Assembly (NCBI GenBank): GCA_030390025.1
Contig: JASTWF010000324.1
Coordinates: 310,001-374,000 of the forward strand
Direction: 5' to 3'
Length of the DNA: 64,000 nucleotides
Source: Squalus acanthias
Lineage: Eukaryota
A model generated the notes under the pieces. The model made no database searches. It saw nothing but the letters and a program-made list of their open reading frames with translations, and had not been told where the DNA came from. The position numbers and the translations under genes are program-made. Position 1 is the first letter of the stretch. Each line of letters starts with the position of its first letter. Below, piece after piece: positions 3,001 through 51,384 of the stretch.

Positions 3001-6000
3001 AGAATCAGAGAGACTGAGAGAGAATCAGAGAGACTGAGAGAGAATCAGAGACTGAGAGGGAATCAAATAGAGACTGAGAGAGAATCAGAGAGACAGAGAG
3101 AATCAGAGACTGAGAGAGAATCAGAGAGACTGAGAGAGAATCAGAGAGACTGAGAGAGAATCAGAGAGACTGAGATAGAATCAGAGAGACTGAGAGAGAA
3201 TCAGAGAGACTGAGAGAGAATCAGAGAGACTGAGAGAGAATCAGAGACTGAGAGAGAATCAGAGAGACTGAGAGAGAATCAGAGAGACTGAGAGAGAATC
3301 AGAGACTGAGAGAGAATCAGAGAGACTGAGAGAGAATCAGAGACTGAGAGAGAGTCAGAGACTGAGAGAGAATCAGAGACTGAGAGAGAATCAGAGAGAC
3401 TGAGAGAGAATCAGAGACTGAGAGAGAATCAGAGAGACTGAGAGAGAATCAGAGACTGAGAGAGAATCAGAGAGACTGTGAGAGAATCAGAGAGACTGAG
3501 AGAGAATCAGAGAGACTAAGAGAGAATCAGAGAGACTGAGAGAGAATCAGAGAGACTGAGAGAGAAACAGAGACTGAGAGAGAATCAGAGACTGAGAGAG
3601 AATCAGAGAGACTGAGAGAGAATCAGAGACTGAGAGAGAATCAGAGAGACTGAGAGAGAATCAGAGCGACTGAGAGAGAATCAGAGAGACTGAGAGAGAA
3701 TCAGAGACTGAGAGAGAATCAGAGAGACTGAGAGAGAATCAGAGAGACTGAGAGAGAATCAGAGAGACTGAGAGAGAATCAGAGAGACTGAGAGAGAATC
3801 AGAGACTGAGAGAGAATCAGAGAGACTGAGAGAGAATCAGAGAGACTAAGAGAGAATCAGAGAGACTGAGAGAGAATCAGAGAGACTGAGAGAGAATCAG
3901 AGAGACTGAGAGAGAATCAGAGAGACTGAGAGAGAATCAGAGAGACTCTGAGAGAATCAGAGACTGAGAGAGAATCAGAGAGACTGAGAGAGAATCAGAG
4001 AGACTGAGAGAGAATCAGAGACTGAGAGAGAATCAAATAGAGACTGAGAGAGAATCAGAGAGACAGAGAGAATCAGAGACTGAGAGAGAATCAGAGAGAC
4101 TGAGAGAGAATCAGAGAGACTGAGAGAGAATCAGAGAGACTGAGAGAGAATCAGAGAGACTGAGATAGAATCAGAGAGACTGAGAGAGAATCAGAGAGAC
4201 TGAGAGAGAATCAGAGAGACTGAGAGAGAATCAGAGACTGAGAGAGAATCAGAGAGACTGAGAGAGAATCAGAGAGACTGAGAGAGAATCAGAGACTGAG
4301 AGAGAATCAGAGAGACTGAGAGAGAATCAGAGACTGAGAGAGAGTCAGAGACTGAGAGAGAATCAGAGACTGAGAGAGAATCAGAGAGACTGAGAGAGAA
4401 TCAGAGACTGAGAGAGAATCAGAGAGACTGAGAGAGAATCAGAGACTGAGAGAGAATCAGAGAGACTGTGAGAGAATCAGAGAGACTGAGAGAGAATCAG
4501 AGAGACTAAGAGAGAATCAGAGAGACTGAGAGAGAATCAGAGAGACTGAGAGAGAAACAGAGACTGAGAGAGAATCAGAGACTGAGAGAGAATCAGAGAC
4601 TGAGAGAGAATCAGAGACTGAGAGAGAATCTGAGAGACTGAGAGAGAATCAGAGAGACTGAGAGAGAATCAGAGAGACTGAGAGAGAATCAGAGACTGAT
4701 AGAGAATCAGAGACTGAGAGAGAATCAGAGAGACTGAGAGAGAATCAGAGAGACTGAGAGAGAATCAGAGAGACTGAGAGAGAATCAGAGACTGAGAGAG
4801 AATCAGAGAGACTGAGAGAGAATCAGAGAGACTGAGAGAGAATCAGAGAGACTGAGAGAGAATCAGAGACTGAGAGAGAATCAGAGACTGAGAGAGAATC
4901 AGAGACTGAGAGAGAATCAGAGAGACTGAGAGAGAATCAGAGACTGAGAGAGAATCAGAGACTGAGAGAGAATCAGAGAGACTGAGAGAGAATCAGAGAG
5001 ACTGAGAGAGAATCAGAGAGACTGAGAGAGAATCAGAGAGACTGAGAGAGAATCAGAGAGACTGAGAGAGAATCAGAGAGACTGAGAGAGAATCAGAGAG
5101 ACTGAGAGAGAATCAGAGAGACTGAGAGAGAATCAGAGACTGAGAGAGAATCAGAGAGACTGAGAGAGAATCAGAGAGACTGAGAGAGAATCAGAGACTG
5201 AGAGAGAATCAGAGAGACTGAGAGAGAATCAGAGAGACTGAGAGAGAATCAGAGACTGAGAGAGAATCAGAGAGACTGAGAGAGAATCAGAGAGACTGAG
5301 AGAGAATCAGAGAGACTGAGAGAGAATCAGAGAGACTGAGAGAGAATCAGAGACTGGGAGAGAATCAAAGACTGAGAGAGAATCAGAGAGACTGAGAGAG
5401 AATCAGAGACTGAGAGAGAATCAGAGAGACTGAGAGAGAATCAGAGAGACTGAGAGAGAATCAGAGACTGAGAGAGAATCAGAGACTGAGAGAGAATCAG
5501 AGAGACTGAGAGCGAATCAGAGACTGAGAGAGAATCAGAGAGACTGAGAGAGAATCAGAGACTGAGAGAGAATCAGAGAGACTGAGAGAGAATCAGAGCG
5601 ACTGAGAGAGAATCAGAGAGACTGAGAGAGAATCAGAGACTGAGAGAGAATCAGAGAGACTGAGAGAGAATCAGAGAGACTGAGAGAGAATCAGAGAGAC
5701 TGAGAGAGAATCAGAGACTGAGAGAGAATCAGAGAGACTGAGAGAGAATCAGAGAGACTGAGAGAGAATCAGAGAGACTGAGAGAGAATCAGAGAGACTG
5801 AGAGAGAATCAGAGACTGAGAGAGAATCAGAGACTGAGAGAGAATCAGAGAGACTAAGAGAGAATCAGAGAGACTGAGAGAGAATCAGAGAGACTGAGAG
5901 AGAATCAGAGAGACTGAGAGAGAATCACAGACTGAGAGAGAATCAGAGAGACTGAGAGAGAATCAGAGAGACTGAGAGAGAATCAGAGAGACTGAGAGAG

Positions 6001-9000
6001 AATCACAGACTGAGAGAGAATCAGAGACTGAGAGAGAATCAGAGAGACTGAGAGAGAATCAGAGAGACTGAGAGAGAATCAGAGAGACTGAGAGAGAATC
6101 AGAGAGACTGAGAGAGAATCAGAGACTGAGAGAGAATCAGGGAGACTGAGAGAGAATCAGAGAATGAGAGAGAATCAGAGAGACTGAGAGAGAATCAGAG
6201 AATGAGAGAGAATCAGAGAGACTGAGAGAGAATCAGAGACTGAGAGAGAATCAGAGAGACTGAGAGAATCAGAGAGACTGAGAGAGAATCAGAGACTGCG
6301 AGAGAATCAGAGACTGAGAGAGAATCAGAGACTGAGAGAGAATCAGAGAGACTGAGAGAGAATCAGAGAGACTGAGAGAGAATCAGAGAGACTGAGAGAG
6401 AATCAGAGACTGAGAGAGAATCAGAGAGACTGAGAGAGAATCAGAGAGACTGAGAGAGAATCAGAGACTGAGAGAGAATCAGAGAGACTGAGAGAGAATC
6501 AGAGACTGAGAGAGAGTCAGAGACTGAGAGAGAATCAGAGACTGAGAGAGAATCAGAGAGACTGAGAGAGAATCAGAGACTGAGAGAGAATCAGAGAGAC
6601 TGAGAGAGAATCAGAGACTGAGAGAGAATCAGAGAGACTGTGAGAGAATCAGAGAGACTGAGAGAGAATCAGAGAGACTAAGAGAGAATCAGAGAGACTG
6701 AGAGAGAATCAGAGAGACTGAGAGAGAAACAGAGACTGAGAGAGAATCAGAGACTGAGAGAGAATCAGAGACTGAGAGAGAATCAGAGACTGAGAGAGAA
6801 TCTGAGAGACTGAGAGAGAATCAGAGAGACTGAGAGAGAATCAGAGAGACTGAGAGAGAATCAGAGACTGATAGAGAATCAGAGACTGAGAGAGAATCAG
6901 AGAGACTGAGAGAGAATCAGAGAGACTGAGAGAGAATCAGAGAGACTGAGAGAGAATCAGAGACTGAGAGAGAATCAGAGAGACTGAGAGAGAATCAGAG
7001 AGACTGAGAGAGAATCAGAGAGACTGAGAGAGAATCAGAGACTGAGAGAGAATCAGAGACTGAGAGAGAATCAGAGACTGAGAGAGAATCAGAGAGACTG
7101 AGAGAGAATCAGAGACTGAGAGAGAATCAGAGACTGAGAGAGAATCAGAGAGACTGAGAGAGAATCAGAGAGACTGAGAGAGAATCAGAGAGACTGAGAG
7201 AGAATCAGAGAGACTGAGAGAGAATCAGAGAGACTGAGAGAGAATCAGAGAGACTGAGAGAGAATCAGAGAGACTGAGAGAGAATCAGAGAGACTGAGAG
7301 AGAATCAGAGACTGAGAGAGAATCAGAGAGACTGAGAGAGAATCAGAGAGACTGAGAGAGAATCAGAGACTGAGAGAGAATCAGAGAGACTGAGAGAGAA
7401 TCAGAGAGACTGAGAGAGAATCAGAGACTGAGAGAGAATCAGAGAGACTGAGAGAGAATCAGAGAGACTGAGAGAGAATCAGAGAGACTGAGAGAGAATC
7501 AGAGAGACTGAGAGAGAATCAGAGACTGGGAGAGAATCAAAGACTGAGAGAGAATCAGAGAGACTGAGAGAGAATCAGAGACTGAGAGAGAATCAGAGAG
7601 ACTGAGAGAGAATCAGAGAGACTGAGAGAGAATCAGAGACTGAGAGAGAATCAGAGACTGAGAGAGAATCAGAGAGACTGAGAGCGAATCAGAGACTGAG
7701 AGAGAATCAGAGAGACTGAGAGAGAATCAGAGACTGAGAGAGAATCAGAGAGACTGAGAGAGAATCAGAGCGACTGAGAGAGAATCAGAGAGACTGAGAG
7801 AGAATCAGAGACTGAGAGAGAATCAGAGAGACTGAGAGAGAATCAGAGAGACTGAGAGAGAATCAGAGAGACTGAGAGAGAATCAGAGACTGAGAGAGAA
7901 TCAGAGAGACTGAGAGAGAATCAGAGAGACTGAGAGAGAATCAGAGAGACTGAGAGAGAATCAGAGAGACTGAGAGAGAATCAGAGACTGAGAGAGAATC
8001 AGAGACTGAGAGAGAATCAGAGAGACTAAGAGAGAATCAGAGAGACTGAGAGAGAATCAGAGAGACTGAGAGAGAATCAGAGAGACTGAGAGAGAATCAC
8101 AGACTGAGAGAGAATCAGAGAGACTGAGAGAGAATCAGAGAGACTGAGAGAGAATCAGAGAGACTGAGAGAGAATCACAGACTGAGAGAGAATCAGAGAC
8201 TGAGAGAGAATCAGAGAGACTGAGAGAGAATCAGAGAGACTGAGAGAGAATCAGAGAGACTGAGAGAGAATCAGAGAGACTGAGAGAGAATCAGAGACTG
8301 AGAGAGAATCAGGGAGACTGAGAGAGAATCAGAGAATGAGAGAGAATCAGAGAGACTGAGAGAGAATCAGAGAATGAGAGAGAATCAGAGAGACTGAGAG
8401 AGAATCAGAGACTGAGAGAGAATCAGAGAGACTGAGAGAATCAGAGAGACTGAGAGAGAATCAGAGACTGCGAGAGAATCAGAGACTGAGAGAGAATCAG
8501 AGACTGAGAGAGAATCAGAGAGACTGAGAGAGAATCAGAGAGACTGAGAGAGAATCAGAGAGACTGAGAGAGAATCAGAGACTGAGAGAGAATCAGGGAG
8601 ACTGAGAGAGAATCAGAGAGACTGAGAGAGAATCAGTGAGACTGAGAGAGAATCAGAGACTGAGAGAGAATCAGAGAGACTGAGAGAGAATCAGAGACTG
8701 AGAGAGAATCAGAGAGACTGAGAGAGAATCAGAGAGACTGAGAGAGAATCAGAGAGACTGAGAGAGAATCAGAGACTGAGAGAGAATCAGAGAGACTGAG
8801 AGAGAATCAGAGAGACTGAGAGAGAATCAGAGAGACTGAGAGAGAATCAGAGACTGAGAGAGAATCAGAGAGACTGAGAGAGAATCAGAGACTGAGAGAG
8901 AATCAGAGAGACTGAGAGAGAATCAGAGAGACTGAGAGAGAATCAGAGACTGAGAGAGAATCAGAGACTGAGAGAGAATCAGAGACTGAGAGAGAATCAG

Positions 9001-9508
9001 AGAGACTGAGAGAGAATCAGAGAGACTGAGAGAGAATCAGAGACTGAGAGAGAATCAGAGACTGAGGGAGAATCAGAGACTGAGAGAGATTCAGAGAGAC
9101 TGAGAGAGAATCAGAGAGACTGAGAGAGAATCAGAGAGACTGAGAGAGAATCAGAGAGACTGAGAGAGAATCAGAGACTGAGAGAGAATCAGAGACTGAG
9201 AGAGGATCAGAGAGACTGAGAGAGAATCAGAGAGACTGAGAGAGAATCAGAGAGACTGAGAGAGAATCAGAGAGACTGAGAGAGAATCAGAGAGACTGAG
9301 AGAGAATCAGAGACTGAGAGAGAATCAGAGAGACTGAGAGAGAATCAGAGAGACAGAGAGAGAATCAGCGACTGAGAGAGAATCAGAGACTGAGAGAGAA
9401 TCAGAGAGACTGAGAGAGAATCAGAGAGACTGAGAGAGAATCAGAGACTGAGAGAGAATCAGAGAGACTGAGAGAGAATCAGAGAGACTGAGAGAGAATC
9501 AGAGAGAC
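1..9508. repeat. GA-rich satellite, 18/20-bp unit ACTGAGAGAGAATCAGAG(AG), block 1
   Basis: Uninterrupted tandem array of mixed 18- and 20-bp units with sparse point variants; runs off the left edge of the window. Confidence 0.99.
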
Positions 9509-9757
9509 TGTAAGGGATTCTGACCCTGCGTGTCTCGCAGCCTGTGAGATTCACGCGGCTCTGTGCAGCCTGTGTGTCAGTGAAGGTTTAGGCCTTGTTG
9601 CCTGTTCTGGTCTCCAGCCAGTCTGGGAGCACTAGACACACCTGTGAGTGGTTCGAATCACTCGCCCTTACGGTTCTAGACACTGGACTTAGATGCGAGA
9701 GCAGTAATGGAGATGAAACTCAGGTAGACTCGGTTGAATGGTACGAAATGGAAAATC

Positions 9758-9763
9758 TTTATT
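9758..9763 (-). promoter_or_regulatory. LTR polyadenylation signal AATAAA
   Basis: TTTATT on the plus strand; conserved in the solo LTR (30346-30351). Confidence 0.65.
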
Positions 9764-10310
9764 GCATAATACTTAAGATTACAAAATACATGTCATAAGC
9801 ACAGATTAATGACAGTACAATCTTACACGCAGTTATGTAACTGATTTCAGGGAAACGAGGAACGAACGACACATCATAAATGGGGGCACACATTACAGTT
9901 ATCCTTAAAACTTAAACCCTCCCCTATCAATACCTATTCTAAACTAGACTGGTAGGATCGAGACTCATGCTCACCACTCGTGATAACTCGGAGAATTTTA
10001 AAGTAAGGCACTCGGCTCGTTTCGCTGCAGTTCTTTCTTGTATTTTCGGGCGCGGTCGGGGTTTACTGACCGTGGCGGTACGTGGATTCTTCTCCTCTTC
10101 TTCTCGTCTCGTCTCGTAGTCAACAGAGTCCAGAGAAAAACAGAAGGCTGCTCGTCCAGCAGAGCGATACCCGAGGATCAGAATAGGAGAATAAAAGTTC
10201 AGCAGTCATCAGCGAGATCAATCAGTCAAGAGTCCAGCCTGAGTCAAGAGTCAGCAGAGATATGAGTCGAATCCAGAGAATAAGCCCTTGATGGACATTT
10301 GTTCACTATA

Positions 10311-10316
10311 GTTATA
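10311..10316 (-). promoter_or_regulatory. Putative LTR TATA box
   Basis: Minus strand GCACTATAAC; the equivalent in the solo LTR is GCACTATAAT (~30963-30972) with GGGCGGG upstream, conserved within an otherwise diverged segment. Confidence 0.5.
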
Positions 10317-10885
10317 GTGCTGTGTTCCCTTATCTCCCGCTCAAATCTTAATGTTTGTCCTTTGTGAAATGCTGGTGCACAAAACTCCCAGCATGGGGCG
10401 ATTCTTTCCTTTAATGGGCTTCGGTAGCACCTTAAACTGGCCAAGTAGCCGTTAATGTTTTCCCCATTGTCGAGCCAGCTAGGAGTCTCCCTGACTGGGT
10501 TTGGGGCCTTCTCGAATACTGATATGTGTATTGCTGTGTCTGGATGGGCCTTCGATTGCCCATTACAATGGTCCTTACTTGTGCATGGAAAATGATTCCA
10601 GCACTTATATCTTTGCTATTGTGTCGAATGCAGACAGGTTGCATCCTGTCTTTATCAGTGTTTGCTGCGTATTAACCAATCTGATACTGAAATGTTTATT
10701 CGAACGCCATCTTGTCTGCCCACTGTATTCTGGAAGCTTCTGCCACGATGCTTGGCGGCCATTTTACAGGCTGCTTGTGTCCACTTTGAAAACCTGGCAG
10801 CATTCTGCTGAAATAAAAGCTGTTTGAACGAAACTCTGTGTTTTTCTCCTTATTAATAAAATCGCGATATATTGCGAATTCTACA

Positions 10886-10897
10886 GTCCCTCCTGTT
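10886..10897 (-). promoter_or_regulatory. Polypurine tract (PPT)
   Basis: Minus strand AACAGGAGGGAC immediately precedes the TGTAG start of the LTR. Confidence 0.75.
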
Positions 10898-11335
10898 GAT
10901 GCGAATAACTCCGCTTATCGTATCAAAAATCATAGTGGTGAGCAATATTATCTCGATTTTCCTCCGAATCCAGCAAATTAATCCCATAACTTTAACCTAG
11001 CTAGGGTCTCTGTGTCGTCCTTATTTCCCAAGAAAATTACATTTTATATCACCGTAGGCATTATTTGCCCTTAAACTTACACCACTTGTTTTCCTTCCCG
11101 GCGTAACCAGGCCGATGCCTCTCGTATCACCTGTATATTCATCTTTTATTCAGGGAAAGGAAAAACAAAACCCAAAACCAAACAATCATTTTTAACTGTA
11201 ACACCATCACCAAAATAATCAACACCAACTCTTAAAACATGTCGAGTTCCCAACGTATTTACAATCTCTGAAAATCATGATTGAGTACAAACTTCCGCGG
11301 CGCACGTGGCGAGCGGGAGTGACGCCATTTTCCGA

Positions 11336-13685
11336 TCACACGGTGCTTTCATCGTGCACGCGCACGTAACGTTCTCGCCACTCTCCCGTGTTTTCATGCT
11401 TGGTGAGGCGCTTGTCTCTTTTACAATGTACGACCAATAGGTACACTACAATGAAAACTTGGCATACGACTAAAATGTGGGAGGCTATTCTGATCCATGA
11501 AGGCACTTCAATATTGGTGAACAGATTCCACCACGGTGGAACTACTATATCCAGAATGTCTGTTCCTATTTCGACAGTTTTCTGTTCTAATGTGTAAAGT
11601 GTTTCTGTGACACCGCGACGGCTTTTAAAAGCTTGGTGAGGTGTTCAGGGAGAGGGGGAATGAGGTATCCAAAATGCGCGACGAATCGCTGCAAGTCGGT
11701 GAAATTCTCTTTTACTGTGAGATGAACAGTGGATGGTTCAGGGATTGGGACAATTCGCTATTGTGCTACTTGAACTTCCGCCCTGGGTTTGAAACAGAAA
11801 CTGCTGTCACTCACCGGACACCGGCTACGGTTTCCATGCTGGTAGTGTTGCGCTGCAGTGGTAACACAATATGTTCCACCCCCGATGTATGCTACCTGCG
11901 GAGGCACATGATCTTGTGCCATTGCCTCCATGGTACAATTCATGGACTTGGCGCCAGCCGTTCTGAACCCGCACTGTGGTGTTAAAAAGGCATTCAAGTG
12001 CTGGGGACACAGTATTATGTGTGCTCCCCTGCCACGACAACCAGAGAGATCTGTACCTGTCATCGTTTGCTCCCAGCGGATGACGTAGGGTGGAACCGCT
12101 GCATAGCGAATGTGGGCTCCCCCCTGAATGACACCAATGTTCTCTACCCGATACACCGGGGCGGGCTTTGCTGTGTCGCCCAAAACCGGCATGCGTAAAA
12201 CTATACCCATAATGGTATGGTTTGATCGTCCGCAGTCCACGGGGACTGGGTATGCTTCTGAAGCTAGCCTGAGCTGGCACGGACTTAATGCGTTCTGAAA
12301 AGGGTGGAGCGCCCGCAGGTGTTTGTTACTTATCCAGGACGGGACCAAACCTTGTTTTAAATCCTCCAAATTACTGCGGCCCTCGCCCAGTAACCACGCC
12401 CCGTAAAGCACGCACACCTCGTTCTGCGCAGCTTGATCGGATGCATTCCGATCTTCCCTAATCAGGGCATTTACCGTTTTTGCATGTTTCTCCAGCTCTG
12501 CTGTAATTTCCTTTAAATGGAGAGTCATGGCTTGGTCCTCGTGTAAACCCGACCCTACCACTTTATTTTCATCTATTAGAATGTCTTTTAATTGCTTTTT
12601 TAGACCATTAATCTGGGTCTGCAGCTCCACACTGTCTAGAGCGTTGACCACAGATGTACCCGTGTTAAAAGCAGTGAACGCATCGTTCACCAAACCCCTT
12701 CTTTGCCTCCCTACTTGATCCAAAACTTCCTGTGGTGCGGTGTACAAACTTGTTTTATCAATTTCCGCGAAATCGAATTCGTAAAATTGTCTGAACATCT
12801 TGGTCAACAGGACCTGATACAACTGTTCCGTCTTTTTGGGGCACCACTCTGGTAACCGCACCTCGGTGAGATTTAAAATCACCGAGGCCACCGCGTAATG
12901 TACCCCCTGAAATAGTATCTGGTCTGTGGGGACCAGTACCAAACCATTCCCGGGTCCCTTACTAGTTTTAGGGCACCCTTCTTCCTCAGCTAGAACCACC
13001 GGAATCGTGGGCGGGGCTTTGCGTGGGCGCGTAATGAGCTCAGTGGCATTTACCGGGATCGAAGAGTATGGGGCTCCGCACCCCCTGGTGCTCGCATCCC
13101 ACCTCATCCCCTGTCCGTTATCCTGCCACTGATTAATGAAAAATATGAATATGCCTTTGGGGCAAGGGTATTTTGACCCCCACATGCATACATAAATTCC
13201 CTCGTCCGGTTCCCACCATTTGTCCCGACAGACTTTCACTTGTCCGTTTGTCCCCGTAATTGTCCGATGGGTATTATTACCCAGTCGTTCCCACTCGACC
13301 GACGAGTTCCTCATAGTTTTGCTCAGCTTTCGCAGCCACCACCATCGGCTCAATGGGACATTCCCACTACAAGTCAAACAAATCCGTTTGCCGACGGTGA
13401 CGCTGATCCTGGGTGCGATGATCCTTACTTTGGGGCACATTAAAGAAGTCTCTTTGTAGGCAACCCCGATGTGCTAGAATACTCCGTTGAGTTCGTTCCC
13501 AGCCATCCTGGCCACCTTCCCTTGTGGAAATAGGTGCTGGTCTCCTCTGCCTCCCGTCTTCCGGTCCCATCCACCGCGATGGGGGCCGTGTCCCCGGAAC
13601 ATCCAAACACCACGACATCCTTGGTGCGGCCTCGATAGGCCAATCCACATCCGATTGCCGCGAGCAATACTAGAATTCGTTCCAT
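11336..13685 (-). pseudogene. env: Envelope glycoprotein (Ig-like domain + F-like class I fusion protein), about 783 codons, three lesions
   Basis: ATG at 13685 in AGGATGG context starts a signal peptide (MERILVLLAAIGCGLA). Frame break at ~13440, then the 560-aa block with RQRR furin site (12708-12697), fusion peptide GLVNDAFTAFNTGTSVVNA, heptad repeat and Cys-rich region. In-frame TAG at 11760-11758, then RIVPIPEPSTVHLTVKENFTDL...AVSQKHF; 1-nt frameshift near 11596, then YTLEQKTVEIGTDILDIVVPPWWNLF...WIRIASHILVVCQVFIVVYLLVVHCKRDKR...YVRVHDESTV and TGA at 11338-11336 (hand translation). Confidence 0.85.
11758..13440 (-). CDS. env: Largest intact block of env (560 aa): Ig-like domain, F2-like part, furin site, F1-like ectodomain
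   Basis: ORF track; several N-x-S/T sequons (NSS, NNT, NAT, NLT, NAS, NHT, NCT, NRS), RQRR|GLV cleavage site, coiled-coil LQTQINGLKKQLKDIL, DLSGC...ILCP motif. Lacks its own signal peptide and TM. Confidence 0.7.
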   Translation of the reverse strand: MCPKVRIIAPRISVTVGKRICLTCSGNVPLSRWWWLRKLSKTMRNSSVEWERLGNNTHRTITGTNGQVKVCRDKWWEPDEGIYVCMWGSKYPCPKGIFIFFINQWQDNGQGMRWDASTRGCGAPYSSIPVNATELITRPRKAPPTIPVVLAEEEGCPKTSKGPGNGLVLVPTDQILFQGVHYAVASVILNLTEVRLPEWCPKKTEQLYQVLLTKMFRQFYEFDFAEIDKTSLYTAPQEVLDQVGRQRRGLVNDAFTAFNTGTSVVNALDSVELQTQINGLKKQLKDILIDENKVVGSGLHEDQAMTLHLKEITAELEKHAKTVNALIREDRNASDQAAQNEVCVLYGAWLLGEGRSNLEDLKQGLVPSWISNKHLRALHPFQNALSPCQLRLASEAYPVPVDCGRSNHTIMGIVLRMPVLGDTAKPAPVYRVENIGVIQGGAHIRYAAVPPYVIRWEQTMTGTDLSGCRGRGAHIILCPQHLNAFLTPQCGFRTAGAKSMNCTMEAMAQDHVPPQVAYIGGGTYCVTTAAQHYQHGNRSRCPVSDSSFCFKPRAEVQVAQ

Positions 13686-13971
13686 CCTTCCTTGGTTCCT
13701 GTGATCAGATAGAATGAGGTAGCCAGCCTCGCAAGAGTCTCTGGCTTTTGTGAAGGGTGAGCGGGTCCCCTGACCTCGCCTCACGTAAACTTCAACGTTC
13801 GCTGAATAAACTTTAACTAAACCTATCTTTAAAGCTCCCATCATTTTATCGTTTTCTGTTAAAAACACTACAATCTTAACCTTATTAAAACTATAAACTT
13901 AACCTTGAACTATGAACTTAAAACTTAAAACTTATTACTATACAGTGCCGCCCGTTCTCAGGGCGGCCCCT

Positions 13972-15117
13972 TTAAATTCTGAGAAGGCTGCTGCGAGCTC
14001 TTCCCGACGGTGGGAGGGCACTGACCCTTCCCTTTGATCTGCCGCAGCCTGTTGCTGCACTGATTCCTTCCTCTGATCTGCCGCAGCCTGTTGCTGCTGC
14101 GATGGGGCCGGGCTGTATCTGGGTTGCCTTAACCTTAAGTCTACGCCTTGGGGCAGTCTGGGGACATGACCACATCATCCTGGGCTGGGGTTCTCTACTT
14201 GACCTACGGGGAGTTGCCATGGGCGGGGGTTCCGTGACTGACGGACCGGGTTCCGAGACTTCCATCGGGACGACCTGGGGTTCCACCACAGTCGCTGGCT
14301 CCGCCTCCGCTGACTCCGCCTCCCTAACCTCGGGGCTCGCAGTTTGTGGCTCCGCCCTGCTCGGCCCAGCAGGCGGCCCTTCACTCGCGATCTCTGCCTC
14401 CCCCGAGGGCGGGACGTTCAAAGCGGGCGGCTCTGTCTCTGGGGTCCTCACCGTCACTCCCTGTGCTCCCACAGCGGCTGGCCCCGCCTCCCCTAGCTCC
14501 TCCCTCCTGTCTTCGGGACCTGCAGCTTGTGTGTCCACCCTGTGTGGATCTCTATCTGCAGCCCGTATCCTCCCTATACCTAAAATGGGACCGTTCCCAA
14601 AAAACCACTCGTCTTCATCACTATCCTCATCTGACTCGAGTTCCCGGAATTCTCCCTCATCTGACTCCCAACCCCACAAAAATGCTTCATGATCTCCCAG
14701 GATGTCCCCTCCCCTGATGCAAGCTGCTTTGCCTGCCTGTGTGCCTTGTGGTCCTACCTGGGGCTGTGCTTCCCCACTGGCGGGGTTTACCCCTGTGGTT
14801 TTCCCTTGCGCACCTGGCTTGTACAGTTTGCACTGGTTTGCATCCTCATACTCCCGGCTTTTGGCTACCCTGTAGGCTGCTTTTATCTCACTAAGCTGCG
14901 CTTCTAGCCTGAGCACGTCTAACTTTCCCATTGATCGGGCGTTCTCCTCCCGCAGGGCCTGCTCTCTAAGCTGCCCTTCCAGCCCATCTATTTTCCCTAT
15001 TAAGCGGGCGTTCTCCTCCCGCAAGGCCTGCTCTTTTAACCTGGCCTCCTCACCGCAGACCCCCTCCTGTGTGTGTCTTTTAAAAGGACACAGGTAGGCA
15101 GGCTGCGTGGGCTCTAG
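13972..15117 (-). CDS. Orphan proviral ORF-x upstream of env (coiled-coil N-terminus, acidic patch, Pro/Glu/Ala-rich disordered region, basic C-terminus)
   Basis: 350-aa ORF (TTG start at 15024); the frame stays open up to a TGA at 15120-15118. EQALREENAR and AATGCGRS each occur twice. No capsid, zinc-knuckle, RT or integrase motif recognised. Confidence 0.6.
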   Translation of the reverse strand, partial: LEPTQPAYLCPFKRHTQEGVCGEEARLKEQALREENARLIGKIDGLEGQLREQALREENARSMGKLDVLRLEAQLSEIKAAYRVAKSREYEDANQCKLYKPGAQGKTTGVNPASGEAQPQVGPQGTQAGKAACIRGGDILGDHEAFLWGWESDEGEFRELESDEDSDEDEWFFGNGPILGIGRIRAADRDPHRVDTQAAGPEDRREELGEAGPAAVGAQGVTVRTPETEPPALNVPPSGEAEIASEGPPAGPSRAEPQTASPEVREAESAEAEPATVVEPQVVPMEVSEPGPSVTEPPPMATPRRSSREPQPRMMWSCPQTAPRRRLKVKATQIQPGPIAAATGCGRSEEGISAATGCGRSKGRVSALPPSGRARSSLLRI

Positions 15118-15169
15118 TCATTGGGTACTATTAGACGGTCCCTGCGGCACCTACGGGGCCGGTAGCAAC

Positions 15170-15369
15170 NNNNNNNNNNNNNNNNNNNNNNNNNNNNNNN
15201 NNNNNNNNNNNNNNNNNNNNNNNNNNNNNNNNNNNNNNNNNNNNNNNNNNNNNNNNNNNNNNNNNNNNNNNNNNNNNNNNNNNNNNNNNNNNNNNNNNNN
15301 NNNNNNNNNNNNNNNNNNNNNNNNNNNNNNNNNNNNNNNNNNNNNNNNNNNNNNNNNNNNNNNNNNNNN
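15170..15369. other. Assembly gap (200 N)
   Basis: Exactly 200 Ns; a round number suggesting a scaffolding gap of unknown true size. Confidence 0.99.
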
Positions 15370-18300
15370 AATCAGAGAGACTGAGAGAGAATCAGAGAGA
15401 CTGAGAGAGAATCAGAGAGACTGAGAGAGAATCAGAGAGACTGAGAGAGAATCAGAGACTGAGAGAGAATCAGAGAGACTGAGAGAGAATCAGAGAGACT
15501 GAGAGAGAATCAGAGACTGAGAGAGAATCAGAGAGACTGAGAGAGAATCAGAGAGACTGAGAGAGAATCAGAGACTGGGAGAGAATCAGAGACTGAGAGA
15601 GAATCAGAGAGACTGAGAGAGAATCAGAGACTGAGAGAGAATCAGAGAGACTGAGAGAGAATCAGAGAGACTGAGAGAGAATCAGAGACTGGAGAGAATC
15701 AGAGACTGAGAGAGAATCAGAGACTGAGAGAGAATCAGAGACTGAGAGAGAATCAGAGAGACTGAGAGAGAATCAGAGACTGAGAGAGAATCAGAGACTG
15801 AGAGAGAATCAGAGAGACTGAGAGAGAATCAGAGACTGAGAGAGAATCAGAGAGACTGAGAGAGAATCAGAGAGACTGAGAGAGAATCAGAGACTGAGAG
15901 AGAATCAGAGACTGAGAGAGAATCAGAGAGACTGAGAGAGAATCAGAGACTGAGAGAGAATCAGAGACTGAGAGAGAATCAGAGAGACTGAGAGAGAATC
16001 AGAGACTGAGAGAGAATCAGAGAGACTGAGAGAGAATCAGAGACTGAGAGAGAATCAGAGAGACTGAGAGAGAATCAGAGAGACTGAGAGAGAATCAGAG
16101 AGACTGAGAGAGAATCAGAGACTGAGAGAGAATCAGAGAGACTGAGAGAGAATCAGAGAGACTGAGAGAGAATCAGAGAGACTGAGAGAGAATCAGAGAG
16201 ACTGAGAGAGAATCAGAGAGACTGAGAGAGAATCAGAGACTGAGAGAGAATCAGAGAGACTGAGAGAGAATCAGAGAGACTGAGAGAGAATCAGAGACTG
16301 AGAGAGAATCAGAGAGACTGAGAGAGAATCAGAGAGACTGAGAGAGAATCAGAGAGACTGAGAGAGAATCAGAGAGACTGAGAGAGAATCAGAGAGACTG
16401 AGAGAGAATCAGAGAGACTGAGAGAGAATCAGAGAGACTGAGAGAGAATCAGAGAGACTGAGAGAGAATCAGAGACTGAGAGAGAATCAGAGAGACTGAG
16501 AGAGAATCAGAGAGACTGAGAGAGAATCAGAGAGACTGAGAGAGAATCAGAGACTGAGAGAGAATCAGAGAGACTGAGAGAGAATCAGAGAGACTGAGAG
16601 AGAATCAGAGAGACTGAGAGAGAATCAGAGACTGAGAGAGAATCAGAGAGACTGAGAGAGAATCAGAGAGACTGAGAGAGAATCAGAGAGACTGAGAGAG
16701 AATCAGAGACTGAGAGAGAATCAGAGAGACTGAGAGAGAATCAGAGAGACTGAGAGAGAATCAGAGACTGGAGAGAATCAGAGACTGAGAGAGAATCAGA
16801 GAGACTGAGAGAGAATCAGAGAGACTGAGAGAGAATCAGAGACTGGGAGAGAATCAGAGACTGAGAGAGAATCAGAGACTGAGAGAGAATCAGAGAGACT
16901 GAGAGAGAATCAGAGAGACTGAGAGAGAATCAGAGAGACTGAGAGAGAATCAGAGACTGAGAGAGAATCAGAGAGACTGAGAGAGAATCAGAGAGACTGA
17001 GAGAGAATCAGAGAGACTGAGAGAGAATCAGAGACTGAGAGAGAATCAGAGAGACTGAGAGAGAATCAGAGAGACTGAGAGAGAATCAGAGACTGGGAGA
17101 GAATCAGAGACTGAGAGAGAATCAGAGACTGAGAGAGAATCAGAGAGACTGAGAGAGAATCAGAGAGACTGAGAGAGAATCAGAGACTGGAGAGAATCAA
17201 GAGACTGAGAGAGAATCAGAGAGACTGAGAGAGAATCAGAGACTGAGAGAGAATCAGAGAGACTGAGAGAGAATCAGAGAGACTGAGAGAGAATCAGAGA
17301 CTGAGAGAGAATCAGAGACTGAGAGAGAATCAGAGAGACTGAGAGAGAATCAGAGACTGAGAGAGAATCAGAGACTGAGAGAGAATCAGAGAGACTGAGA
17401 GAGAATCAGAGACTGAGAGAGAATCAGAGAGACTGAGAGAGAATCAGAGAGACTGAGAGAGAATCAGAGAGACTGAGAGAGAATCAGAGGACTGAGAGAG
17501 AATCAGAGAGACTGAGAGAGAATCAGAGACTGAGAGAGAATCAGAGAGACTGAGAGAGAATCAGAGAGACTGAGAGAGAATCAGAGAGACTGAGAGAGAA
17601 TCAGAGAGACTGAGAGAGAATCAGAGAGACTGAGAGAGAATCAGAGAGACTGAGAGAGAATCAGAGAGACTGAGAGAGAAACAGAGACTGAGAGAGAATC
17701 AGAGAGACTGAGAGAGAATCAGAGAGACTGAGAGAGAATCAGAGAGACTGAGAGAGAATCAGAGAGACTGAGAGAGAATCAGAGACTGAGAGAGAATCAG
17801 AGACTGAGAGAGAATCAGAGAGACTGAGAGAGAATCAGAGAGACTGAGAGAGAATCAGAGAGACTGAGAGAGAATCAGAGAGACTGAGAGAGAATCAGAG
17901 ACTGAGAGAGAATCAGAGACTGAGAGAGAATCAGAGAGACTGAGAGAGAATCAGAGACTGAGAGAGAATCAGAGAGACTGAGAGAGAATCAGAGACTGAG
18001 AGAGAATCAGAGACTGAGAGAGAATCAGAGAGACTGAGAGAGAATCAGAGAGACTGAGAGAGAATCAGAGAGACTGAGAGAGAATCAGAGAGACTGAGAG
18101 AGAATCAGAGACTGAGAGAGAATCAGAGAGACTGAGAGAGAATCAGAGAGACTGAGAGAGAATCAGAGAGACTGAGAGAGAATCAGAGAGACTGAGAGAG
18201 AATCAGAGACTGAGAGAGAATCAGAGACTGAGAGAGAATCAGAGAGACTGAGAGAGAATCAGAGACTGAGAGAGAATCAGAGACTGAGAGAGAATCAGAG

Positions 18301-21300
18301 AGACTGAGAGAGAATCAGAGACTGAGAGAGAATCAGAGAGACTGAGAGAGAATCAGAGAGACTGAGAGAGAATCAGAGACTGAGAGAGAATCAGAGAGAC
18401 TGAGAGAGAATCAGAGACTGAGAGAGAATCAGAGACTGAGAGAGAATCAGAGACTGAGAGAGAATCAGAGAGACTGAGAGAGAATCAGAGAGACTGAGAG
18501 AGAATCAGAGACTGAGAGAGAATCAGAGAGACTGAGAGAGAATCAGAGAGACTGAGAGAGAATCAGAGACTGAGAGAGAATCAGAGAGACTGAGAGAGAA
18601 TCAGAGAGACTGAGAGAGAATCAGAGAGACTGAGAGAGAATCAGAGACTGAGAGAGAATCAGAGACTGAGAGAGAATCAGAGAGACTGAGAGAGAATCAG
18701 AGAGACTGAGAGAGAATCAGAGAGACTGAGAGAGAATCAGAGACTGAGAGAGAATCAGAGACTGAGAGAGAATCAGAGAGACTGAGAGAGAATCAGAGAG
18801 ACTGAGAGAGAATCAGAGAGACTGAGAGAGAATCAGAGACTGAGAGAGAATCAGAGACTGAGAGAGAATCAGAGACTGAGAGAGAATCAGAGAGACTGAG
18901 AGAGAATCAGAGACTGAGAGAGAATCGAGAGACTGAGAGAGAATCAGAGAGACTGAGAGAGAATCAGAGACTGAGAGAGAATCAGAGAGACTGAGAGAGA
19001 ATCAGAGAGACTGAGAGAGAATCAAGAGACTGAGAGAGAATCAGAGAGACTGAGAGAGAATCAGAGAGACTGAGAGAGAATCAGAGACTGAGAGAGAATC
19101 AGAGAGACTGAGAGAGAATCAGAGAGACTGAGAGAGAATCAGAGACTGAGAGAGAATCAGAGAGACTGAGAGAGAATCAGAGAGACTGAGAGAGAATCAG
19201 AGAGACTGAGAGAGAATCAGAGACTGAGAGAGAATCAGAGAGACTGAGAGAGAATCAGAGAGACTGAGAGAGAATCAGAGACTGAGAGAGAATCAGAGAC
19301 TGAGAGAGAATCAGAGAGACTGAGAGAGAATCAGAGAGACTGAGAGAGAATCAGAGAGACTGAGAGAGAATCAGAGAGACTGAGAGAGAATCAGAGACTG
19401 AGAGAGAATCAGAGACTGAGAGAGAATCAGAGACTGAGAGAGAATCAGAGAGACTGAGAGAGAATCAGAGAGACTGAGAGAGAATCAGAGAGACTGAGAG
19501 AGAATCAGAGACTGAGAGAGAATCAGAGAGACTGAGAGAGAATCAGAGAGACTGAGAGAGAATCAGAGAGACTGAGAGAGAATCAGAGACTGAGAGAGAA
19601 TCAAGAGACTGAGAGAGAATCAGAGAGACTGAGAGAGAATCAGAGAGACTGAGAGAGAATCAGAGAGACTGAGAGAGAATCAGAGAGACTGAGAGAGAAT
19701 CAGAGACTGAGAGAGAATCAGAGACTGAGAGAGAATCAGAGAGACTGAGAGAGAATCAGAGACTGAGAGAGAATCAGAGAGACTGAGAGAGAATCAGAGT
19801 CTGAGAGAGAATCAGAGACTGAAAGAGAATCAGAGAGACTGAGAGAGAATCAGAGAGACTGAGAGAGAATCAGAGACTGAGAGAGAATCAGAGACTGAGA
19901 GAGAATCAGAGACTGAGAGAGAATCAGAGAGACTGAGAGAGAATCAGAGAGACTGAGAGAGAATCAGAGAGACTGAGAGAGAATCAGAGAGACTGAGAGA
20001 GAATCAGAGACTGAGAGAGAATCAGAGACTGAGAGAGGATCAGAGAGACTGAGAGAGAATCAGAGACTGAGAGAGAATCAGAGAGACTGAGAGAGAATCA
20101 GAGAGACTGAGAGAGAATCAGAGAGACAGAGAGAGAATCAGAGACTGAGAGAGAATCAGAGACTGAGAGAGAATCAGAGAGACTGAGAGAGAATCAGAGA
20201 GACTGAGAGAGAATCAGAGACTGAGAGAGAATCAGAGAGACTGAGAGAGAATCAGAGAGACTGAGAGAGAATCAGAGAGACTGAGAGAGAATCAGAGACT
20301 GAGAGAGAATCAGAGAGACTGAGAGAGAATCAGAGACTGAGAGAGAATCAGAGACTGAGAGAGAATCAGAGACTGAGAGGAATCAGAGACTGAGAGAGAA
20401 TCAGAGAGACTGAGAGAGAATCAGAGAGACTAGAGAGAATCAGAGAGACTGAGAGAGAATCAGAGAGACTGAGAGAGAATCAGAGAGACTGAGAGAGAAT
20501 CAGGGACTGAGAGAGAATCAGAGACTGAGAGAGAATCAGAGACTGAGAGAGAATCAGAGACTGAGAGAGAATCAGAGAGACTGAGAGAGAATCAGAGAGA
20601 CTAAGAGAGAATCAGAGAGACTGAGAGAGAATCAGAGAGACTGAGAGAGAATCAGAGAGACTGAGAGAGAATCAGAGAGACTGAGAGAGAATCAGAGACT
20701 GAGAGAGAATCAGAGACTGAGAGAGAATCAGAGAGACTGAGAGAGAATCAGAGAGACTGAGAGAGAATCAGAGAGACTGAGAGAGAATCAGAGAGACTGA
20801 GAGAGAATCAGAGACTGAGAGAGAATCAGAGACTGAGAGAGAATCAGAGAGACTGAGAGAGAATCAGAGAGACTGAGAGAGAATCAGAGACTGAGAGAGA
20901 ATCAGAGAGACTGAGAGAGAATCAGAGAGACTGAGAGAGAATCAGAGAGACTGAGAGAGAATCAGAGAGACTGAGAGAGAATCAGAGAGACTGAGTGAGA
21001 ATCAGAGACTGAGAGAGAATCAGAGAGACTGAGAGAGAATCAGAGAGACTGAGAGAGAATCAGAGACTGAGAGAGAATCAGAGAGACTGAGAGAGAATCA
21101 GAGAGACTGAGAGAGAATCAGAGACTGGGAGAGAATCAGAGACTGAGAGAGAATCAGAGAGACTGAGAGAGAATCAGAGACTGAGAGAGAATCAGAGAGT
21201 CTGAGAGAGAATCAGAGAGACTGAGAGAGAATCAGAGACTGGGAGAGAATCAGAGACTGAGAGAGAATCAGAGACTGAGAGAGAATCAGAGAGACTGAGA

Positions 21301-40500: not shown

Positions 40501-41550
40501 GACAGAATCAGAGAGACTGAGAGTGAATCAGAGAGACTGAGAGAGAATCAGAGACTGAGAGAGAATCAGAGACTGAGAGAGAATCAGAGAGACTGAGAGA
40601 GAATCAGAGAGACTGAGAGAGAATCAGAGAGACTGAGAGAGAATCAGAGACTGAGAGAGAATCAGAGACTGAGAGAGAATCAGAGAGACTGAGAGAGAAT
40701 CAGAGACTGAGAGAGAGTCAGAAAGACTGAGAGAGAATCAGAGAGACTGAGAGCGAATCAGAGAGACTGAGAGAGAATCAGAGACTGAGAGAGAATCAGA
40801 GAGACTGAGAGAGAATCAGAGAGACTGAGAGAGAATCAGAGAGACTGAGAGAGAATCAGAGACTGAGAGAGAATCAGAGAGACTGAGAGAGAATCAGAGA
40901 GACTGAGAGAATCAGAGAGACTGAGAGAGAATCAGAGAGACTGAGAGAGAATCAGAGAGACTGAGAGAGAATCAGAGAGACTGAGAGAGAATCAGAGACT
41001 GAGAGAGAATCAGAGACTGGGAGAGAATCAGAGAGACTGAGAGAGAATCAGAGAGACTGAGAGAGAATCAGAGAGACTGAGAGAGAATCAGAGACTGAGA
41101 GAGAATCAGAGAGACTGAGAGAGAATCAAAGAGACTGAGAGAGAATCAGAGACTGAGAGAGAATCAGAGAGACTGAGAGAGAATCAGAGACTGAGAGAGA
41201 ATCAGAGACTGAGAGAGAATCAGAGAGACTGAGAGAGAATCAGAGACTGAGAGAGAATCAGAGAGACTGAGAGAGAATCAGAGAGACTGAGAGAGAATCA
41301 GAGACTGAGAGAGAATCAGAGAGACTGAGAGAGAATCAGAGAGACTGAAAGAGAATCAGAGACTGAGAGAGAATCAGAGAGACTGAGAGAGAATCAGAGA
41401 GACTGAGAGAGAATCAGAGAGACTGAAAGAGAATCAGAGACTGAGAGAGAATCAGAGAGACTGAGAGAGAATCAGAGAGACTGAAAGAGAATCAGAGACT
41501 GAGAGAGAATCAGAGAGACTGAGAGAGAATCAGGGAGAATCAGAGAGACG
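31560..41550. repeat. GA-rich 18/20-bp satellite, block 3 (array edge)
   Basis: Same unit; decays into non-repetitive sequence at ~41530-41580. Confidence 0.99.
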
Positions 41551-42177
41551 GAGAGAAAGGAGAAATTGATGGAAATCAGTGAGCGACCGAAAGGATAAAA
41601 CTAAAAATGAGTGGATTCAGCAGAGAACAGGAGGCGGAACAAAGTGTGAGAATGATTGGTGAGAGTGTTGAATTGAGGAAGTGCTCACACAGCCTGAGAA
41701 CGAGAGACGGACACAATCTTTAGCAGACAGTGAAAACACAGCAACAGACAGACAGAGGGAAGTGAAAATAATCCGTTGGGAGCTGAGTCAATTTTCAAGG
41801 ACAATATAACAGAATTTTTTTAATCTCTTAAACATGGATAAATTAGTGGGAGACTGACAGCTGATCTATCACACAGACAAACTGCACAGAGAACAGACGC
41901 TTCGCTGGAGGACTGTGCTGGCTAATTTAATATTCTAATAGAATTCAAACACTCTTTAAACTAACAGGACTAACAACTCCATCATGTAACGCAAGAGAGA
42001 TTATGAGACACTGTACGTATAATGCCGAATCAGATCAGATCATAAAGCAGCCATGCTGCTTAGACAATTAAAGAGCAGCTCGCTTGTTAGCTCATTATCC
42101 AAGCATTTTGTTTGCATCTTTCTGTTGTGTCACTTTTTTTTGCCTGCTTTTAGTTTCCTCACAACATGTTTCTTTCT

Positions 42178-51305: not shown

Positions 51306-51384
51306 CCCCATCAAAGCTGGTGCAGGAGGGAGTTTCTGGTCTTGGCTTGGTCCTTGAGAGCTCCATCGGTACAGTCCCACTCTA

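Follow-up and report, generated by a model that had tools for sequence, protein, structure and literature searches.

As described by Wang & Han (Mol Biol Evol 2020, PMC7947760), the Env protein of lokiretroviruses comprises a signal peptide, a basic cleavage site, a fusion peptide, a coiled coil and a membrane anchor, and resembles the F protein of paramyxo- and pneumoviruses. The paramyxovirus F protein depends on a separate attachment protein, and the F scaffold is also found together with receptor-binding modules, placed at the N-terminus in the coronavirus spike and inserted in the foamy virus Env (PMC11468914).

We analysed a window of 64,000 nucleotides of the Squalus acanthias genome. 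The window contains a degraded copy, represented by its 3' part (end of pol, env and 3' LTR), of an ERV-like element of lokiretrovirus type that is young and present in high copy number. The label expresses that the element is closest to the published lokiretroviruses in genome layout and Env fold, and not its placement in an RT tree. The following features were located, from the upstream end of the element to its 3' LTR:

15170..15369, no strand: assembly gap, 200 N
13975..15117, minus strand: C-terminal tail of pol after the integrase, with coiled-coil, acidic and Pro-rich stretches
13638..13685, minus strand: start of env with its signal peptide (codons 1-16 in the numbering of the 783-aa protein), in another frame than the 560-aa ORF
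13441..13637, minus strand: beta-rich leader (codons 17-82), with a single Cys and a single N-glycosylation sequon, conserved in relatives
13117..13440, minus strand: Ig-like domain (codons 83-190), as judged from conservation, PDB profile matches, sub-threshold Pfam Ig_3 matches and the model
12976..13116, minus strand: linker (codons 191-237), carrying the Pro-rich stretch and an N-glycosylation sequon that is conserved
12697..12975, minus strand: F2-like part (codons 238-330), where distant env relatives and F structural alignments start
12697-12708, minus strand: RQRR cleavage site, at the end of the F2-like part
11761..12696, minus strand: F1-like part, made up of the fusion peptide, a long helix of heptad repeats (355-444) and beta domains rich in Cys (477-645)
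11336..11757, minus strand: remainder of env, not readable in the window copy: second heptad repeat, membrane anchor and tail
9508..10867, minus strand: 3' LTR, matching a full copy's 1630-nt LTR at either end but different in the middle

The provirus is truncated in the window by the assembly gap, beyond which neither gag, the 5' LTR nor the remaining pol is present. In the 1203-aa pol frame of a full copy, the pol segment corresponds to residues 865-1203 (86% match). A satellite with a 10-nt period flanks the island 9400-15170 on both sides. The domain order of env can be followed along the window copy, which is broken at three places: a 1-nt loss near 13463, in the leader, breaks the frame; a premature stop lies at 11758-11760 (codon 643); and past this stop there is another 1-nt loss near 11599. 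The 560-aa ORF is the translation of 11761-13440 on the minus strand, and is a fragment of env with an internal Met start.

A 783-aa env is preserved in many paralogs of this genome, which start 82 residues upstream of the Met of the 560-aa ORF with a frame that is continuous into the Ig region. In these proteins the signal peptide is followed by a leader of ~65 aa, the Ig-like domain (83-190), the Pro-rich linker, the F2-like part and RQRR, and then by the fusion peptide, the long heptad helix, the beta domains, the second heptad repeat and the membrane anchor. The earlier note on this DNA, made from its sequence, had placed the Ig domain at residues ~6-102 of the 560-aa ORF; the Met of that ORF is not the start of the protein, and the domain is not at the very N-terminus, as the signal peptide and leader precede it. 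The env ATG of the paralog that served as ruler falls at window position 13685, the hydrophobic N-terminus is found in the upstream frame 13443-13898, and the frame 11339-11644 carries an anchor-like stretch. The same reading frame is open, at 98-99% identity, at no fewer than 77 other places in the genome; a DNA search of the genome yielded at least 40 copies at 99-100%, and env is conserved at 38-72% in relatives of other species.

A full copy of the element shows the order LTR, 626-aa gag-like frame, PR-RT, RNase H-like tether, RNase H, integrase plus tail, env and LTR. Its Pfam domains are RVP, RVT_1, RT_RNaseH_2/RT_RNaseH, RNase_H, Integrase_H2C2, rve and SH3; the 626-aa gag-like frame had no Pfam match. 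The full copy thus contains each of the parts that mark a lokiretrovirus genome (PR, RT, tether, RNase H, IN). Those that mark a lokiretrovirus Env (a Mononegavirales-type fusogen with signal peptide, RXKR-type site, fusion peptide, coiled coil and TM) are recognised in the env by fold and layout, and not by Pfam. There is no separate attachment gene in its LTR-to-LTR layout. The two LTRs of one copy are 99.6% identical.

We then considered the N-terminal part of env. The earlier note had reported an Ig motif at 13135-13425, and it is present: residues 6-102 of the 560-aa ORF map to 13425-13135 on the minus strand and contain V14-x-x-G17-x-x-x-x-L22-x-C24, W33-W35 and D79-x-G-x-Y-x-C85. C24 and C85 are 61 residues apart and correspond, in the 783-aa numbering, to Cys106 and Cys167, with Trp117-119 and D-E-G-I-Y-V-C. 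Taking as the mark of a V/I-set domain two Cys ~55-75 residues apart, a Trp 10-15 residues after the first and D/E-x-G-x-Y-x-C before the second, the env domain carries the whole motif. The translation also contains the candidate second Cys pair mentioned in the note, C21/C71 (103/153 of the 783-aa env), and the Pro-rich stretch (residues 137-147 of the 560-aa ORF). The core residues are kept in homologues: C24 and the C-strand Trp were invariant in 5 of 5 relatives compared, the motif Gly and C85 were identical in all four relatives that reach them, and the first motif position is D or E in these four. Over seven clade sequences, both Cys, the Trp and the motif Gly showed no variation.

A profile restricted to the clade, made from seven close relatives that are 53-72% identical to the Ig-like domain, matched seven PDB sequences at E<=1, five of which are Ig-superfamily domains; the best match was CRTAM, with E 0.006 across the whole domain (E range 0.006-0.035). 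Another PDB profile search gave Ig-superfamily domains for 8 of 11 matches. With a mixed 12-sequence profile there were 468 PDB matches (best E 4.7e-7; the 60 listed are all IgSF), and the single-domain CD8a and CRTAM were matched at about 2e-4, E-values that are better because N-terminal pieces of distant lineages were added, whose homology to the Ig-like domain is unestablished. Of 34 family members, four matched Pfam Ig_3 (best E 0.0027; window ORF E 0.19), at most at ~17 bits against a cut-off of 30 bits; every other Pfam family was matched by a single member at most, and no Pfam Ig model reached its cut-off with the window ORF, the intact paralog or the 34 members. In the ESM Atlas the best scores (0.80 and 0.87) were below the tool's trust level, and the named neighbours were mostly Ig families. 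A search of the PDB with an untrimmed alignment gave a zinc-finger match alone, which was discarded as an artefact of a chimeric gene model. All together, the support for an Ig domain at the level of sequence matching is marginal, and weaker than the structural support.

The AlphaFold model of full-length env (mean pLDDT 65.9, pTM 0.41) predicts an Ig-topology, two-sheet Greek-key beta-sandwich in the head. Strands of the Ig region have pLDDT 70-85, with values <50 at 121-129, inside the domain; the leader strands 21-30, 36-39 and 48-59 are at about 67-80, and the linker is low at 225-235. (An earlier AlphaFold model of the N-terminal 240 residues alone, from 8 sequences, had a mean pLDDT of 39 and was unusable.) In an all-against-all VIA-align comparison, 40 of the 50 best chains were Ig-type domains lying on the N-terminal part, with rmsd 2.4-4.1 Å across 83-109 residues (in many cases almost all of the target domain) and Z 8.3-9.0, Z values of 8-9 being, by the tool's own note, little above the level often reached by unmatched models. 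The identity to cellular Ig domains in these structural alignments is 10-19%. Because the alignments span model residues about 27-224, the strands that form the sandwich are not fixed. The model, the structure matches and the profile of close relatives nevertheless agree on an Ig beta-sandwich.

The remainder of the model resembles F. All 37 matches shown by Foldseek against the PDB were paramyxo- or pneumovirus F proteins (E 7.5e-11 to 5.9e-6), the best being hPIV3 F (E 7.5e-11, TM 0.50 on target), and VIA-align gave Z 10.9 for NDV F and 9.1-9.2 for the F proteins of measles, Ghana virus and PIV5, the alignment running from model residue 245 onwards in each case. Since the F alignments of both tools begin at model residue 238-245, the Ig-like head is an addition to F and not the Ig-like domain II of F itself, in line with the proposal of an Ig domain placed in front of an F-type protein. 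Foamy virus Env matched the env model at Z 8.3-8.5 (prefusion form 8.5), through the shared F-like core alone. PF00523 (Fusion_gly) had no match at E<=1 with the window ORF, the intact paralog or the 34 members (25 families shown of 32), nor in a strict first search over the whole genome, which is uninformative since control genomes likewise gave none. A sequence search of the PDB with a whole-family env profile found no F protein and coiled-coil noise alone, and was not retained. The env core is F-like by predicted fold, and not a PF00523 member by sequence match. In the modelled surface subunit, an extra module precedes the F2-like part: the beta-rich leader, the V/I-type Ig-like sandwich and a glycosylated Pro-rich hinge.

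At least four diverged env lineages of this genome retain the Ig-like domain, as do relatives in skates and sharks. In a comparison of two env lineages whose synonymous sites are saturated (pS 0.7-0.8), pN was 0.22 in the Ig part, 0.30 in the leader, 0.28-0.32 in the linker and 0.12 in the F1-like core; the linker has the highest extracellular non-synonymous divergence, and the anchor-and-tail segment alone exceeds it. Among 15 intact copies pN/pS was 0.05 in the Ig part and 0.07 overall, values that are biased because the copies were picked by protein similarity, which lowers pN. The Ig-like head is conserved and under purifying selection. A related lineage (Mustelus, Pristiophorus) has a different, Cys-rich N-terminal module at the same place, for which no relation to the Ig-like head (probability 0.7%) and no PDB match was found. 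When clade 1 was compared with the Chiloscyllium-type clade, hhalign gave a probability of 0.5% over 18 columns (the W..W....G...C stretch), and the profile of the latter clade itself found no Ig domain in the PDB; on these results the idea of one homologous Ig head in all env lineages was dropped. The automatic UniRef name of the Chiloscyllium protein is 'Ig-like domain-containing protein', and one relative matched Pfam V-set with E 0.045.

What could the Ig-like module do? In the explanation that best joins these observations, and that we regard as reasonably probable, the lokiretrovirus-type env is a single-chain class I F-like fusogen with an Ig-like receptor-binding head. The head is probably a built-in receptor binder, because the element is devoid of a separate attachment gene. 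The different module that the Mustelus and Pristiophorus lineage carries at this place, and the receptor-binding modules on the F scaffold of coronaviruses and foamy viruses, also speak for this reading. Furin-type cleavage at RQRR would prime the protein; engagement of a receptor by the head would then trigger it, releasing the F-like core, which would refold and fuse the membranes.

We weighed this reading against others. The module might instead be a shield or regulator, namely a glycosylated cap against antibodies, a prefusion clamp or an immune decoy or modulator, with the F-like core contacting the receptor. Captured Ig domains of large DNA viruses act as immune decoys or modulators, and pneumovirus F is able to make receptor contact itself. 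Four N-glycosylation sequons in residues 17-237, the membrane-distal, N-terminal position of the head and the presence of herpes- and poxvirus Ig-type proteins among the BFVD matches to the model (ranks 41 and 50) agree with such a role; however, the element offers no alternative candidate for an attachment protein, evolution of the head is slower than that of leader, linker and tail, which would not be expected of a mere shield, and no secreted form or separate start was seen. We therefore judge this alternative unlikely, and the immune decoy role evoked in the earlier note gained no support among the analyses run.

Somewhat less likely again is that the head originated in viruses and came to resemble Ig by convergence, as a beta-sandwich comparable to the Ig-like core of the gammaretroviral RBD, the C...W...DxGxYxC motif being coincidental. 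The sub-threshold Pfam Ig scores, the low identity to Ig domains in the structural alignments and the lack of demonstrable homology among heads from different env clades would fit this possibility, but the full motif set is present at the right spacing and conserved, and the profile matches are almost only to IgSF (5/7 and 8/11) and come with a fold match. Finally, that the motif arose by chance, or that a decayed ORF or a faulty gene model produced it, as a broken window copy with an ORF that begins at an internal Met could suggest, is most improbable and is refuted by the many open copies, the conservation in other species and purifying selection.

Returning to the receptor-binding reading, the head may derive from a cellular Ig domain. 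The earlier note had spoken of a captured host IgSF domain, which would at best be an old event: the domain is kept in at least four synonymously saturated lineages and in skates and sharks, and its identity to cellular Ig domains is low. More tentatively, and with a little less than even confidence, we propose that an F-type fusogen became self-sufficient by taking up, long ago, a host IgSF domain as N-terminal head, that heads are exchangeable (they would be Ig-like here and Cys-rich in the sister lineage) and that the element spread by reinfection until very recently, the last point because many env copies are open and the LTRs of one copy are nearly identical.

To our knowledge, no exogenous member of this deep-branching retrovirus lineage has been isolated, and the Ig-like head, if confirmed, would offer a handle for finding its receptor. 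It would also show an Ig domain put to use within a viral fusion protein itself and provide a simple, testable case of modular design on the F scaffold. If the wider proposal is correct, it would be a third, undescribed way of arming that scaffold, beside the N-terminal domains of coronaviruses and the inserted RBD of foamy viruses. Moreover, the abundance of the element and its many open env frames make this genome suited to studying the amplification of an env-bearing element. As the earlier note had supposed, no Ig-F envelope was found in the literature searched on lokiretroviruses, retroviral envelopes and cartilaginous fish, including PMC7947760, PMC9040795, PMC12440569, PMC13709493, PMC11468914 and bioRxiv 2023.10.26.564294 and 2021.11.23.469661; nor is an Ig domain mentioned in the lokiretrovirus papers searched.

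Compared with the lokiretroviruses of PMC7947760, the element has the same LTR-gag-pol-env layout and the same RNase H-like tether plus second RNase H; it also shares a coiled-coil addition near the end of pol, an smc gene being reported there for some members. The published Env model has no N-terminal domain (the words 'immunoglobulin' and 'Ig-like' are absent from that text); moreover, a salmonid lokiretrovirus element matches PF00523 with E 2.2e-7 (PMC7947760), in contrast to the env of this element. Paramyxo- and pneumovirus F proteins share the predicted fold over residues ~240-700 (F2-like strand-helix, cleavage site, fusion peptide, HRA, domains I/II, HRB) at 10-16% sequence identity and with no Pfam match, but have no N-terminal extension, their mature chain starting at the equivalent of env residue ~240. 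Foamy virus Env (Fernandez et al., Sci Adv 2024, PMC11468914) is like this env in combining an F-like core and an added domain with no separate attachment protein; its RBD, however, has a previously unidentified fold and is inserted into the surface subunit, at a point upstream of the furin site, whereas the module here is Ig-like and N-terminal. Foamy virus Env also has a leader-peptide subunit, which is missing here, and the Pfam foamy Env family did not match the window ORF or the intact paralog. Cellular V/I-set domains (CRTAM, CD8 alpha, JAM-A, DIP/IgLON, titin/obscurin) share the motif set, domain length and predicted fold of the head, which differs from them by the candidate extra Cys pair, by extra strands (in the leader and after the G-strand region) and by having no assignable parent gene. 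In gammaretroviruses, the core of the RBD is an Ig-like beta-sandwich and the SU has the same order as here, beta-sandwich head, Pro-rich hinge, rest of SU, cleavage site and fusion subunit; the fusion core differs, being a short gamma-type TM there and an F1-like subunit of 450 aa in this env.

The 560-aa minus-strand ORF with the Ig-like motif lies in a provirus remnant embedded in satellite and adjoining an assembly gap. The satellite, of 10-nt period, occupies most of window 1-41600 (purine-rich blocks of tens of kb at 1-9400, 15370-30000 and 31600-41600, the period being 10 nt, or 20 nt alternating) and is broken by an island of complex sequence at ~9400-15170, itself cut by 200 N at 15170-15369. 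The island holds the following features:

13975-15117, minus strand: 381-aa open frame, the pol tail, 86% identical to that of a full copy of the element
13443-13898, minus strand: 152-aa open frame
11758-13440, minus strand: the 560-aa ORF carrying the Ig-like motif
~10867-9508, minus strand: variant 3' LTR, from comparison with the full copy

Elsewhere, window 46153-48863 and 51358-53410 hold non-LTR retrotransposon reverse transcriptase fragments (minus strand) and a long tandem array, in which all three plus-strand frames are open and encode Ser/Arg/His/Leu-rich repeats.

The earlier note had placed an Ig-like domain in front of a viral fusion protein at ORF residues 6-102. Both its translation and its coordinates (window 13425-13135) were reproduced, as was the motif: V14..G17....L22.C24, W33-35 and D79.G.Y.C85, with 61 residues between the two Cys. 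The ORF is a fragment of a longer env: in intact paralogs the protein is 783 aa long, starting 82 residues before the ORF's Met with a Met and a hydrophobic signal peptide and ending in a membrane anchor and tail. Compared with one such paralog, the window copy is 97.6% identical over 4161 nt; its frame is broken by 1-nt losses near 13463 (codon ~75) and near 11599 (codon ~696) and, between them, by a premature stop codon at 11758-11760 (codon 643).

Intact Ig-F frames, which the earlier note had proposed to look for, are plentiful in the 3.7-Gb Squalus acanthias genome. At least 77 further places match the ORF at 98-99% protein identity, and among the 78 candidates scored, of 10,498 in a first look, 64 have an open frame of 844-861 aa and four a stop inside the match. 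The env start was located in 17 of 19 fetched copies, 15 of which have exactly 783 codons. Such env-bearing elements occur in the genome in extreme abundance and diversity: for the window's family, a first look gave those 10,498 candidates at the protein level and 3,900 at the DNA level. The same genome contains at least three further lineages of the window's clade (61-65% identical to one relative), together with many older copies of the Chiloscyllium-type env (33-81% identity).

The evidence that the head of this env is Ig-like comes from several sources. The ORF alone gave weak signals (Pfam Ig_3, E 0.19; antibody light chains in the PDB, E ~0.3). Consistent with the earlier note's expectation that the motif be kept among homologous copies, seven clade sequences with 53-72% identity to the domain all keep both Cys, the Trp and the motif Gly. 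A profile of these seven matched CRTAM across the whole domain (E 0.006 and 0.013), five of its seven PDB matches at E<=1 being IgSF; with a five-sequence profile, 8 of 11 were IgSF. Of 34 members, four matched Ig_3 (best E 0.0027), and every other Pfam family was matched by one member at most; no Pfam Ig model reached its cut-off. A 12-sequence profile that included head pieces of distant lineages gave 468 matches, of which the 60 listed were all IgSF (DIP-alpha, 4.7e-7; CD8a and CRTAM, ~2e-4), the homology of the added pieces to the domain being unsupported. We do not lean on this profile, because hhalign gave a probability of 0.5% between the clade and Chiloscyllium-type heads, and because the Chiloscyllium-type profile alone found no Ig domain in the PDB.

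We modelled the natural 783-aa env with AlphaFold from a 50-sequence alignment (mean pLDDT 65.9; 384 residues >=70). Head strands were predicted at 81-97, 102-107, 115-118, 141-146, 149-154, 163-171 and 180-189 (pLDDT 70-85), with low confidence at 121-129. The Ig fold read from the motif was supported by this full-length model: 40 of the best 50 chains in a wide structural search were IgSF domains, as classed from entry titles (antibody, TCR and IgNAR V domains, CD8, CD79b, BTLA, NCAM2, titin, obscurin). Their Z scores of 8.3-9.0 (rmsd 2.4-4.1 Å over 83-109 residues) lie in a range, 8-9, not far above the tool's stated background. NCAM2 Ig1 aligned over 83 of 93 residues at 2.4 Å on model 91-221; most Ig alignments cover ~27-224, and the leader strands and strand 215-220 may belong to the sandwich. 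Judging from model and profiles, the head very probably has an Ig-like fold, and its descent from a cellular Ig domain is likely.

By sequence, the core shows no kinship to F proteins: among the matches listed, none was to PF00523, whether for the ORF, for the intact env or for the 34 relatives, and the family profile retrieved no F protein from the PDB. A strict scan of the whole genome with PF00523 carries no information, as the control genomes gave no match either. By structure, the 37 Foldseek rows listed were paramyxo- and pneumovirus F only, led by hPIV3 F (E 7.5e-11), then NDV, Langya, RSV, PIV5, Nipah and others. A structural search without Foldseek gave NDV F (Z 10.9), measles, Ghana virus and PIV5 F (9.1-9.2) and foamy virus Env (8.3-8.5). 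In the model, then, the env core is F-like by fold, not by sequence. The F alignments begin at model residue 238-245, which puts the Ig-like part ahead of the F-like protein, as the earlier note had it; residues 17-237 thus have no counterpart in F, and the head is distinct from the Ig-like domain II that F itself possesses. Among predicted viral structures, the best matches were F-type glycoproteins of arli-, lispi- and chu-like viruses, baculovirus F and paramyxovirus F. The model was also matched by a 928-aa protein (E 1.3e-15, 796 columns), an abalone herpesvirus protein and the epsilonretrovirus Envs of walleye epidermal hyperplasia virus 1 (E 1.7e-12) and walleye dermal sarcoma virus (E 1.6e-7).

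Searching 1.84 billion representative proteins gave 41 matches to the ORF at E<=0.001. Relatives spanning the head are 48-73% identical (skate, Rhinoraja; sawshark, Pristiophorus; two more); more distant full-length relatives (Mustelus, Chiloscyllium, the frog Pelodytes, one further) are 20-32% identical and align only from ORF residue ~140-155 onward. One relative matched Pfam V-set (E 0.045), and the Chiloscyllium protein carries the automatic UniRef name 'Ig-like domain-containing protein'. Two proteins (P0008, P0017) of a sister env lineage (Mustelus, Pristiophorus) bear another module at this position, Cys-rich and comparable in length (~130 aa), for which no relationship to the Ig head or to any PDB entry could be detected. 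With or without a common origin of these heads, a variable N-terminal module here precedes a conserved F-like core, the pattern expected of a host-contact part. In public sawshark gene models (P0009, P0006), env pieces are joined to a C2H2 zinc-finger protein and to a Niban-like one, probably as chimeras created by annotation across ERV insertions.

In three complete comparisons of the window's lineage with another from this genome, synonymous sites were saturated (pS 0.7-0.8), and pN along the protein was 0.30 (leader), 0.22 (Ig part), 0.28-0.32 (linker), 0.19 (F2-like part), 0.12 (F1-like part) and 0.41-0.43 (anchor and tail). Selection thus keeps the head, though less strictly than the fusion core. 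The 105 pairs among 15 intact copies gave pS 0.033 and pN 0.0023, with pN/pS of 0.07 overall and 0.05 in the Ig part, pN being biased downward since copies were chosen by protein score. These ratios and the LTR pair of one full copy (99.57% identical; 5 mismatches, 2 gaps) suggest that replicating, env-dependent lineages amplified until recently.

The full copy (~12.7 kb) reads: 1630-nt LTR, 626-aa gag-like frame without Pfam match, protease and RT, an RNase H-like domain adjoining RT, a second RNase H, integrase (H2C2 finger and SH3), pol tail, env, LTR. The pol tail, seen in window 13975-15117 and within L021:6102-9710, comprises ~280 aa of coiled-coil or heptad-like repeats, acidic runs and Pro-rich stretches, with only a weak coiled-coil match in Pfam; it varies between copies (86% protein identity, against ~99% in env). 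In two small read runs only guessed to be RNA, depth over L006:1-4680 rises ~5-10 fold at the env start, with a further rise in the LTR, whereas a larger run of unspecified kind gives a roughly flat profile; no joints were reported. This pattern could reflect a spliced env message or unequal copy numbers.

A mode of action may be proposed, in which the anatomy is shown and binding and triggering are inferred. The surface subunit starts with signal peptide and leader, continues with the Ig-like head and a glycosylated Pro-rich hinge, and ends in the F2-like part; cleavage at RQRR would set free the F1-like subunit's fusion peptide. The head may bind a host surface molecule, and its displacement would release the core to refold through a long HRA helix and HRB packing.

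In the main texts of the literature searched, we found no mention of an Ig-like head on an F-like Env. The F-like Env of lokiretroviruses is itself published, and the 2020 abstract names no cartilaginous fishes among their hosts (PMC7947760). Published lokiretroviruses combine gag-pol-env, a tether plus RNase H and an Env resembling F; some also carry an smc-like addition (PMC7947760), to which the pol tail may correspond. Our element shares the gag-pol-env layout, tether and RNase H, and F-like Env (PMC7947760) and thus fits them, a likeness of layout rather than of placement in an RT tree. Given the matches of the model to walleye retrovirus Envs, F-like cores may occur among fish retroviruses beyond those that the lokiretrovirus label covers. 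The proposed env mechanism would mirror how the foamy virus RBD is proposed to act on this scaffold (PMC11468914).
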